Assembly (NCBI RefSeq): GCF_003334335.1
Contig: NZ_QOWQ01000141.1
Reading direction: 5' to 3' (one strand)
Origin: Escherichia coli
GTDB taxonomy: Bacteria; Pseudomonadota; Gammaproteobacteria; Enterobacterales; Enterobacteriaceae
DNA length: 890 nucleotides
Position 1 is the stretch's first letter. Every line of letters starts with the position of its first letter. The notes under the pieces were generated by a model. That model was not told the origin of the DNA and searched no databases. It worked only from the letters and a program-made list of their open reading frames with translations. Below, one piece after another: positions 1 through 890 of the stretch. The position numbers and the translations under genes were made by a program.

Positions 1-77
<77 letters not shown>

Positions 78-551: not shown

Positions 552-787
552 TGGTTGCCTCCGGAGCAGTTTGCGGTGATGCCTTTCCCGGGAATGGATT
601 GCCAGTGCGGGGACTGTGGAGCTTAATTCCGGTGTTGGTGGCCTTTCCGTTGATTTTATGCCAACAGCCCCCTGTGACTGACAGGCTGCCTCGTCATTCC
701 ATTCGTATCTCCAGTAACAGGGGGTTGTATTGTATTTTATTGTGCCGGTTCAGGTGTGCGTTTCCCGGCGCGTCTGCACCGGCTTAA
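551..787 (+). CDS. Doubtful small ORF (78 aa) with one hydrophobic helix-like segment; may be non-coding
   Basis: ATG at 551..553 overlaps the TAA stop of the upstream CDS (TAATG), with AGAGG at 541..545 as a possible Shine-Dalgarno 5 nt upstream. The translated segment LWSLIPVLVAFPLIL (about nt 614..658) is hydrophobic. Against it: the rest is Pro/Arg/Ser-rich and low in complexity, and the ORF contains the inverted repeats listed below. Codon usage includes 3 AGG and 2 CGG, but the upstream CDS also uses rare Arg codons, so this does not discriminate. Confidence 0.2.
   Translation: MVASGAVCGDAFPGNGLPVRGLWSLIPVLVAFPLILCQQPPVTDRLPRHSIRISSNRGLYCILLCRFRCAFPGASAPA
664..728 (+). other. Inverted repeat / possible stem-loop: ACAGCCCCCTGT (664..675) pairs with ACAGGGGGTTGT (717..728), 41-nt loop
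   Basis: Pairing checked by hand: 12 positions, 11 Watson-Crick plus one G-U (G667-T725). A C5/G5 core sits at 668..672 and 720..724. Confidence 0.25.
744..783 (+). other. Imperfect GC-rich hairpin (about 15 bp stem with one mismatch and three G-U pairs, 8-nt loop), not followed by a U-tract
   Basis: GCCGGT (744..749) pairs with ACCGGC (778..783), and CAGGTGTGC (751..759) pairs with GCGCGTCTG (768..776), around loop GTTTCCCG (760..767). The downstream sequence TTAACCAAATT lacks a T-run, so it is not a canonical intrinsic terminator. Confidence 0.2.
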
Positions 788-838
788 CCAAATTCAACAG
801 GGATAAAATAGTGGTAAGCGTACAGCCTGAACCGTCTG

Positions 839-851
839 GTCAGAATCTGAC
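839..851. promoter_or_regulatory. 13-bp palindrome GTCAGA-a-TCTGAC; candidate operator for a dimeric DNA-binding protein
   Basis: Perfect 6-bp inverted arms around a single central base, in a region with no forward ORF leaving the window. It overlaps a weaker hairpin at 827..843, CTGA(a)CC-gtct-GGTCAG. Confidence 0.25.
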
Positions 852-864
852 GAATTAGACAAAG

Positions 865-876
865 TGGTGTCCACCA
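865..876. promoter_or_regulatory. 12-bp palindrome TGGTG-tc-CACCA; second candidate protein-binding site
   Basis: Perfect 5-bp inverted arms with a 2-bp spacer, 14 bp downstream of the 839..851 palindrome. Confidence 0.2.
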
Positions 877-890
877 AATAAGTAGTGGGA

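Follow-up and report, generated by a model that had tools for sequence, protein, structure and literature searches.

The window analysed here, an 890-nucleotide stretch of Escherichia coli DNA, carries a GC-rich imperfect hairpin at 744-783 in the spacer between a zinc-ribbon gene and an insertion sequence. Is this hairpin an RNA element, a DNA site or an inert palindrome, and to which of its neighbours would it belong? The original prediction, made from the sequence of the window, placed it at the end of a doubtful open reading frame (ORF) and suggested an RNA-level element, part of a larger fold, or a region of Rho-dependent or otherwise non-canonical termination.

Genomic setting of the hairpin

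The window is genomic-island DNA that strain EC11 and many others match over 100% of its length at 99.8% identity. Its features are as follows:

1-73, no strand assigned: end of an IS100 (IS21-family) element inserted in the first zinc-ribbon gene; genomes without IS100 match from base 74 only, and istA/istB lie directly upstream
117-551, + strand: zinc-ribbon-domain gene, 144 aa, WP_001221615.1; equivalents in related loci are Pfam Zn_ribbon_11/DUF7828
691-813, + strand: conserved non-coding leader block, common to paralogous island copies and ending at the downstream gene's start codon
707-725, + strand: small upstream hairpin P0, core CUCC 709-712 with GGGG 720-723; terminator-like by scan, with a U-rich tract following
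724-743, + strand: U/G-rich tract separating P0 from the main hairpin; predicted partner of the start-codon region (helix P1) in intact paralogs
744-783, + strand: stem-loop P2, the hairpin under review, with arms 744-759 and 768-783 and loop 760-767 containing a conserved UUUCC; from sequence, RNA folding and variant pairing
784-798, + strand: A-rich linker TTAACCAAATTCAAC, predicted single-stranded, conserved among close paralogs and without a U-tract
799-803, + strand: Shine-Dalgarno-like AGGGA, 7 nt upstream of the GTG; other clades have AAGGAA or AAGGAG at the equivalent place
811-813, + strand: GTG start codon of a UCP030791 (PF27752) gene, the sole remnant of that gene in the window
814-890, + strand: left end of an IS66-family element, with terminal inverted repeat GTAAGCGTACAGCCTGAACCGT at 814-835; tnpA/tnpB/tnpC lie directly downstream, the tnpA start about 15 nt beyond the window

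The hairpin begins 193 nt past the stop codon of the zinc-ribbon gene, in a spacer that is unannotated both in the EC11-type locus and in uninterrupted relatives, and its 3′ edge lies 27 nt upstream of the GTG, with the Shine-Dalgarno-like AGGGA between them. A sensitive BLAST of the spacer revealed that diverged copies (about 75% identity) align only to 691-813 of the window, the leader block. Of 5,426 complete E. coli genomes, roughly half contain this block, at a median of 1 place per genome and a maximum of 6, always in the same island context, and it occurs wherever the downstream GTG, or its decayed remnant, occurs.

The proposed link between the hairpin and an ORF end did not survive these comparisons: ORF 551-787 is not conserved in paralogs, the upstream half of the spacer being unrelated in other clades and single-base insertions falling inside the ORF in close relatives, and the hairpin is placed instead by its distance from the GTG. 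Another reading frame crosses the hairpin and continues to the GTG, but two of the three leader types interrupt it with an in-frame TGA, which makes the hairpin non-coding. Neither frame being conserved, we rejected a coding explanation.

Intact paralogs use the same GTG (GTGCAAATAACC...) to start a gene encoding 166-183 aa, annotated directly after the block, for example at L003 6120-6668 (182 aa; strain LR-31, NZ_AP027520, around 384.6-385.3 kb) and L004 6126-6638 (170 aa). The family is Pfam PF27752 (UCP030791), some members of which are named 'inovirus Gp2 family' and some of which have weak YagK_YfjJ_C similarity; the Pfam library used, NCBIfam and PHROGs yielded nothing further informative for the downstream or upstream proteins, and literature on YfjJ/YagK and on UCP030791/PF27752 nothing relevant. 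In the window this gene is gone, because the IS66-family element starts at 814, right after the GTG. The terminal inverted repeats of the element lie at L001 8813-8834 and 11080-11101, and its far end has a different flank without an 8-bp target duplication, indicating that the DNA originally following the GTG has been lost. The hairpin is not itself part of the IS66-family terminal inverted repeat (GTAAGCG... terminus inward), the left repeat starting only at 814 and the hairpin being unchanged in copies without the IS.

Window-like copies without the IS continue GTGTAAATAACC..., reading GTG TAA ATA ACC GAA: the gene start, a stop at codon 2 and then decayed coding sequence. Across the sampled copies, the IS66 junction is identical to that of the window in 68, a TAA stands at codon 2 in 19, and the GTGCAAATAACC start is retained in 38; in these last, every window-type leader runs into a frameshifted remnant (22-27 codons, or the contig end), and the other clades mostly encode 166-183 aa. 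Because window-type leaders all precede the IS66 junction, an early stop or a frameshifted remnant, the downstream gene is dead in every sampled copy of the window's lineage. The hairpin in the window is an orphaned relic, whatever its role.

Structure of the stem-loop and conservation of its pairing

Read directly from the sequence, the 5′ arm (744-759) is GCCGGTTCAGGTGTGC and the 3′ arm (768-783) is GCGCGTCTGCACCGGC, enclosing an 8-nt loop (760-767, GTTTCCCG). Pairing extends over 15 of the 16 stem positions and includes three G·U pairs (754·773, 755·772 and 757·770), the sole mismatch being T750 x C777 (U×C as RNA); the geometry originally described, down to the missing T-run, is therefore confirmed. 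RNA folding of the + strand returns this very structure, with an energy of -23.4 kcal/mol (z -4.0; matched by 1 shuffle in 200), and the hairpin is the most stable 40-nt window of all 890 bases on both strands. The - strand reached -16.5 kcal/mol (z -2.0), and folding with DNA parameters gave weak, strand-symmetric values of -10.2 and -9.7 kcal/mol on the two strands (z about -1.8 to -1.9). Two extensions of the structure were set aside: a lower stem pairing 730-743 with 784-797, predicted for the window, is absent from the consensus fold of the variants, and complementarity for a pseudoknot between loop and Shine-Dalgarno sequence is at most 4 bp by inspection.

Related copies were gathered from metagenome contigs by a pattern search whose anchors lie outside the hairpin (TCGTCATTCCNTTCGT, 55-85 nt, TTAACNAAATTCAAC), which returned 119 stretches; together with E. 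coli loci these made 126 copies and 29 distinct variants (alignment A1). From A1 we built a covariance model, to which a second alignment of 35 distinct sequences (A3) was fitted; it matches window 691-798 at 118.9 bits and also finds diverged copies in L129, L130, L008 and L131. The linker at 784-798 belonged to the search anchor, making its invariance within A1 true by construction; it is also found in L128, L129, L140 and L008, loci found independently. The leader of the upstream Gp2-family gene of the same island has no similar sequence. In the species-representative genome collection the same anchored pattern had 0 matches and a protein-based scan found 2 loci only, which puts deep covariation out of reach, and an all-against-all protein search for the UCP030791 family returned only 57 cluster representatives. 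This leader family is narrow, young and essentially confined to Escherichia.

In all 29 variants the + strand folds into the hairpin, with energies from -13 to -28 kcal/mol, and in each the - strand fold is the less stable of the two. Standard pairs make up 91.8% of the cells in A1, a share that drops to 28-37% if partners are slid (28-41% against 91.8-92.5% observed across A1 and A3). In A3 the paired share is 92.5%, a value that none of 500 shuffles attains (89.5 +/- 0.5); the covariation score of A3 is 0.258, against 0.212 +/- 0.008 in shuffles. Variation in the hairpin is mostly one-sided wobble change: 12 of the 16 pairs vary on one side only in A1 and stay paired, 0 changing on both sides, and two-sided changes in A3 affect 4 pairs (pair 1, G-C/A-U; pair 9, A-U/C-G; pairs 11 and 13), in 1-3 sequences each.

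The wobble pattern is strongly asymmetric: across the variants, 108 cells are G·U and 5 are A·C. A decaying DNA palindrome should give both equally; strand-biased C>T mutation could partly contribute to the G·U excess. A minimum spanning tree of the variants, which is not a phylogeny, carries 56 stem substitutions, of which 38 still allow a standard pair; a spectrum-matched null, which moves each base change to a randomly chosen stem position with that starting base, gives 30.1 +/- 2.6 (P=0.003). For the - strand reading the count was 30, equal to the null. By RNA versus DNA folding, by wobble asymmetry and by this substitution test, the hairpin behaves on the + strand like the RNA-level element originally suggested.

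These results also weigh on whether the feature is a DNA-level inverted repeat, either an operator for an AlpA-type HTH or zinc-ribbon protein or an origin or nick-site hairpin of G2P/YagK-like proteins, which we consider quite improbable. Conservation within the stem is highest in its outer arms, GCCGGT(G) and (C)ACCGGC, as it might be in a DNA site, but half-sites 28 bp apart would be unusual for a dimeric operator. Like rolling-circle G2P-type origin hairpins, the repeat is GC-rich, has AT-rich flanks and lies by inovirus Gp2 / REP_ORF2-G2P-like genes, the block being flanked by REP_ORF2-G2P / YagK_YfjJ-type genes; unlike them, its inner stem needs G·U pairs on one strand that are A·C mismatches on the other, and its DNA folding energy is unremarkable. 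The hairpins of L131 and L134 are about equally stable on both strands, as a DNA site would have it, yet the excess of pair-preserving changes over the null is seen on the + strand only. We know of no rolling-circle nicking activity, nick motif or replication function for these G2P/YagK-like proteins.

More distant copies extend the comparison. In L131, whose protein is 52% identical, the arms ACCGGUGCCGGCGUGC and GUGCACCGGCACCGGU span 16 positions with one mismatch around a UUUCCU loop (-29.7 kcal/mol). A second O157 copy (L130 1198-1287), recognised by the covariance model, shares the 5′ arm of L131 and differs in the 3′ arm at 6 of 16 positions, five of these six differences keeping or gaining a pair. 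In PV15-279 coordinates the two O157 copies stand at about 1,348,915-1,349,004 and 1,352,707-1,352,807. The loop is UUUCC in all aligned variants printed or listed except the O157-type copy (UUUAC) and L098 (UUUCU). L134 (38% protein identity) cannot be aligned here, but it has a GC-rich hairpin of analogous kind, whose 3′ edge is about 28 nt upstream of its start codon. Conservation of the pairing, which the original prediction had put forward as a check, thus held in part: the stem is kept across 29-35 variants, but it is degenerate in the O157:H7-type copy of L130, where the gene is intact (-12.5 kcal/mol, z -0.13), and among the distant UCP030791 homologs (28-38% identity) L134 alone has such a hairpin, the other five (L133, L135, L139, L143 and L144) having none at this place.

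Could the hairpin have no function at all, being a quasi-palindrome that persists through recent descent together with template switching or strand-biased transitions, and in the window inert junk beside an IS? The family is young and almost all Escherichia, the downstream gene is dead throughout the window's lineage, and one lineage with a working gene, the O157 type, has let the hairpin decay. Stem positions are also more polymorphic than non-stem positions in window-type copies (A1, counted by eye), and quasi-palindrome template switching could be the source of some stem-perfecting changes. We nevertheless judge this explanation improbable, since the 16-pair length and the UUUCC loop persist in diverged copies with differences at 4-6 of the 16 arm positions, the pair-preserving excess is significant after control for the mutation spectrum, and stability of this degree is unlikely by chance across the window, an equally stable 40-nt window arising in 3 of 150 dinucleotide-preserving shuffles of all 890 bases. 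On these sequence comparisons, drawn within a narrow family and, for A3, on an alignment fitted to the model, pairing appears to be kept on the + strand through compensatory and wobble changes, as is required of a structured cis-acting RNA.

The rest of the leader and known classes of element

The suggestion that the hairpin is part of a larger fold is upheld to the extent that it shares the conserved block with the second small hairpin, P0, which contains a covarying pair. The second pair of P0 occurs as U·G, G·U, A-U, G-C and U-A, in a stem that is weak (-5.3 kcal/mol in the window, -7.0 in L003); its clade B equivalent is CGCCAGTCACTGGTG followed by TTTGTATCGT, and the clade B hairpin is CGCCAGUCACUGGUG. 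If P0 is an RNA structure, the transcript would start upstream of about 707, and the main hairpin would be internal rather than at the RNA 5′ end. Promoter scans upstream of the hairpin gave no convincing sigma-70 promoter.

In most intact variants the U/G-rich tract is predicted to pair with GUGCAAAUAACC (the start codon and codons 2-4), forming a helix, P1, that encloses the hairpin and leaves the start codon with an unpaired probability near zero. Such a fold would recall the phage MS2 maturation-gene leader and the hok mRNA fold-back, long-distance folds that occlude translation starts. Attractive as it is in minimum free energy folds, P1 is not established, and we build nothing on it: unlike in those systems, its duplex energy is no better than that of shuffled sequence (p 0.09-0.5), and the pairing is absent in L131. 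In the window its 3′ strand has been removed by IS66. Direct sequestration of the ribosome-binding site, as in an RNA thermometer or translational operator, was rejected, the stem ending at 783 and both AGGGA (799-803) and GTG (811-813) lying outside it.

Intrinsic terminators resemble the hairpin in being GC-rich, with a stem of about 16 bp, and in following a gene, but the hairpin stands 27 nt before a start codon rather than close behind a stop. A U-run (at least about 5 in 8 nt) directly 3′ of the stem is absent in the window (TTAACCAAATTCAAC) and in related copies (TTAACAAAATTC, TTCAGAAACATG, TTCAGTAAATTA and TTTGACAAAATT), and every variant lacks a U-tract there, which bears out the original view that the hairpin is no textbook intrinsic terminator. 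The promoter and terminator scan of the window left the hairpin uncalled, its sole call being the small hairpin at 707-725, and P0 was flagged by the terminator scan in two clades. For Rho-dependent or otherwise non-canonical termination, the remaining part of the original proposal, we found no positive evidence.

REP/BIME elements are intercistronic stem-loops that stabilise mRNA, as between malE and malF, and REPs are scattered through each genome by the hundred. The hairpin resembles them in being a GC-rich, imperfectly palindromic stretch of about 40 nt that lies between co-oriented genes, lacks a U-tract and could plausibly block exonucleases and uncouple neighbouring cistrons, but it departs from them in copy number, the block occupying a single median place per genome and only this island context. 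Stabilisers of the ompA 5′-UTR type require a hairpin within a few nucleotides of the RNA 5′ end. The hairpin shares with these a stable leader stem-loop, upstream of and separate from the ribosome-binding site and followed by an A/U-rich single-stranded stretch; the covarying P0 farther upstream suggests, however, that the transcript starts before the hairpin.

Rfam gave only chance-level miRNA and lncRNA matches on the window (E 0.5-9, far below gathering scores), and on related loci (four at an E-value threshold, four at the gathering threshold) there was no match to the leader in any clade or neighbourhood. Elsewhere in L003, Rfam matched a group II intron.

Candidate roles of the stem-loop

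We give about an even chance to the reading that the hairpin is a + strand RNA stem-loop of the leader, or intercistronic spacer, of the UCP030791/PF27752 gene (G2P/YagK-like) and acts post-transcriptionally, probably on stability, processing or translation. Such a stem-loop would act after transcription as a structural element, its most likely role being that of a stability or processing determinant that sets the survival or translation of the downstream-cistron mRNA. It might shield the 5′ end that processing leaves on the downstream mRNA, or it might separate the zinc-ribbon cistron from that of UCP030791 as a barrier; by either route it would neither terminate transcription nor directly sequester the ribosome-binding site.

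The main rival, which we regard as unlikely, ties the hairpin to the upstream zinc-ribbon operon as a 3′-end element that blocks 3′-to-5′ exonucleases, or that takes part in non-canonical or Rho-dependent termination together with P0 and its U-rich tail. P0 and this tail lie immediately upstream and are terminator-like in two clades, but were P0 to terminate, the hairpin would not be transcribed in the upstream RNA, and no variant provides a U-tract after the hairpin itself. Position also speaks for the downstream gene, whose start is 27 nt away against 193 nt for the upstream stop. Although the block almost always follows a Zn_ribbon_11-type ORF, the gene sets upstream vary (two Zn-ribbon genes, an HTH gene with a mini-ORF, or none), and across these differing sets the block travels with the downstream start codon.

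The distribution of strong and weak hairpins favours the upstream operon. The hairpin is strong where upstream Zn-ribbon ORFs accompany a dead downstream gene, as in window-type copies and the second O157 copy (L130 1198-1287), and the O157-type copy, where it is degenerate, lacks an upstream gene in the same orientation. Hairpin strength thus follows whether such co-oriented genes lie upstream and not whether the downstream gene is intact, which fits an upstream-tied element at least as well, although the copies with dead genes may be too young for decay.

The hairpin is an undescribed feature, though one of an ordinary kind. Taken alone it matters little, conserved leader and intercistronic stem-loops being common and the window's copy being a relic next to an IS. 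For annotation, the block marks the true 5′ boundary of a widespread, essentially unstudied gene module (zinc-ribbon plus UCP030791/G2P-like), and our analysis shows that ORF 551-787 is spurious. Were the G2P-like gene under the control of the stem-loop, there would be a way into the function of these island modules. More speculatively, and with little likelihood in our estimation, the UUUCC-loop hairpin may be the central part of a so far undescribed cis-regulatory RNA motif, specific to the Zn_ribbon_11-UCP030791 module of Escherichia islands and recognised by the upstream zinc-ribbon protein to control the G2P-like gene, or else a single-stranded origin hairpin for G2P-like proteins; if either were true, poorly understood island modules would gain a defined regulatory or replication mechanism.

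Zinc-ribbon genes and a small hairpin upstream of the gene start

The conserved non-coding leader block that carries the stem-loop is preceded by a zinc-ribbon ORF in nearly every context, and both this upstream side and the block itself contain further elements:

Window 1-73: end of an IS100 (IS21-family) element
Window 707-725: P0, a small hairpin, with a U-rich tract next to it (724-743)
L003 5839-5931: unannotated 30-aa mini-ORF, MKRVVMPVRWQCAKCRRWYCGNQPCPWCWR, in the intact module of E. coli LR-31; also in L004, L131 and L130 (about 1042-1130)

In the window, IS100 splits the first gene of an overlapping zinc-ribbon pair (1-116 region); in genomes without IS100, the match to the window starts only at base 74. 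The mini-ORF, which overlaps the stop codon of an AlpA-type HTH gene and always lies directly upstream of the leader block, encodes a zinc ribbon similar to the motif at the C-terminus of the 144-aa protein encoded in the window. P0 and its U-rich tract were flagged as terminator-like in clade B, another leader type, as well as in the window, and the second base pair of P0 shows covariation between clades (U·G, G·U, A-U, G-C, U-A); P0 may serve the upstream zinc-ribbon genes as a weak terminator or attenuator, or may be a further part of the leader.

The IS66 junction and the UCP030791 gene

Behind the leader block, the gene is interrupted directly after its first codon:

Window 814-890 and L001 8813-11101: IS66-family element

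In the UCP030791 gene, the insertion point lies exactly behind the start codon, GTG. The element's flanks are AAATAGTG and TTTTGTTC, with no target duplication, so the gene body was removed by an adjacent deletion or an IS-mediated rearrangement. The identical junction recurs in 68 of the copies sampled, pointing to one ancestral event.

In LR-31, the UCP030791 gene is followed after about 20 nt by a frameshifted ProQ/FinO-family gene on the opposite strand (L003 6686-7194); this gene, which was not found in the other contexts examined, is a hint that the module involves RNA-based regulation. A few kb upstream of the same module, within an IS3 transposase pseudogene and adjoining an ltrA reverse-transcriptase gene, L003 2448-2534 matches a group II intron domain (64.9 bits to Rfam RF00029).

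Stem variation and hairpin strength

Among copies close to the window (clade A), polymorphisms in columns 55-100 of the leader alignment fall, counted by eye, at roughly 11/32 stem positions versus 5/46 surrounding non-stem positions. T757C and G754A are among several changes that perfect the stem, and the pattern is compatible with quasi-palindrome template-switch mutagenesis instead of selection.

These window-type copies (for example L006, L007, L035, L066 and L099) retain a strong hairpin (-21 to -28 kcal/mol) although their downstream gene is always dead. In the O157:H7-type copy (L129/L130 4990-5622), by contrast, the gene is intact, there is no co-oriented upstream gene, and the hairpin is degenerate (-12.5 kcal/mol). 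The L129 contig (JAIJJM010000615.1) carries the label of a Collinsella sp. MAG; the 131 bases of it that were compared match island DNA of E. coli O157:H7 and O111 at 100% identity, and the contig is most likely a binning contaminant. This distribution of hairpin strength is the opposite of that predicted for a leader serving the downstream gene only.
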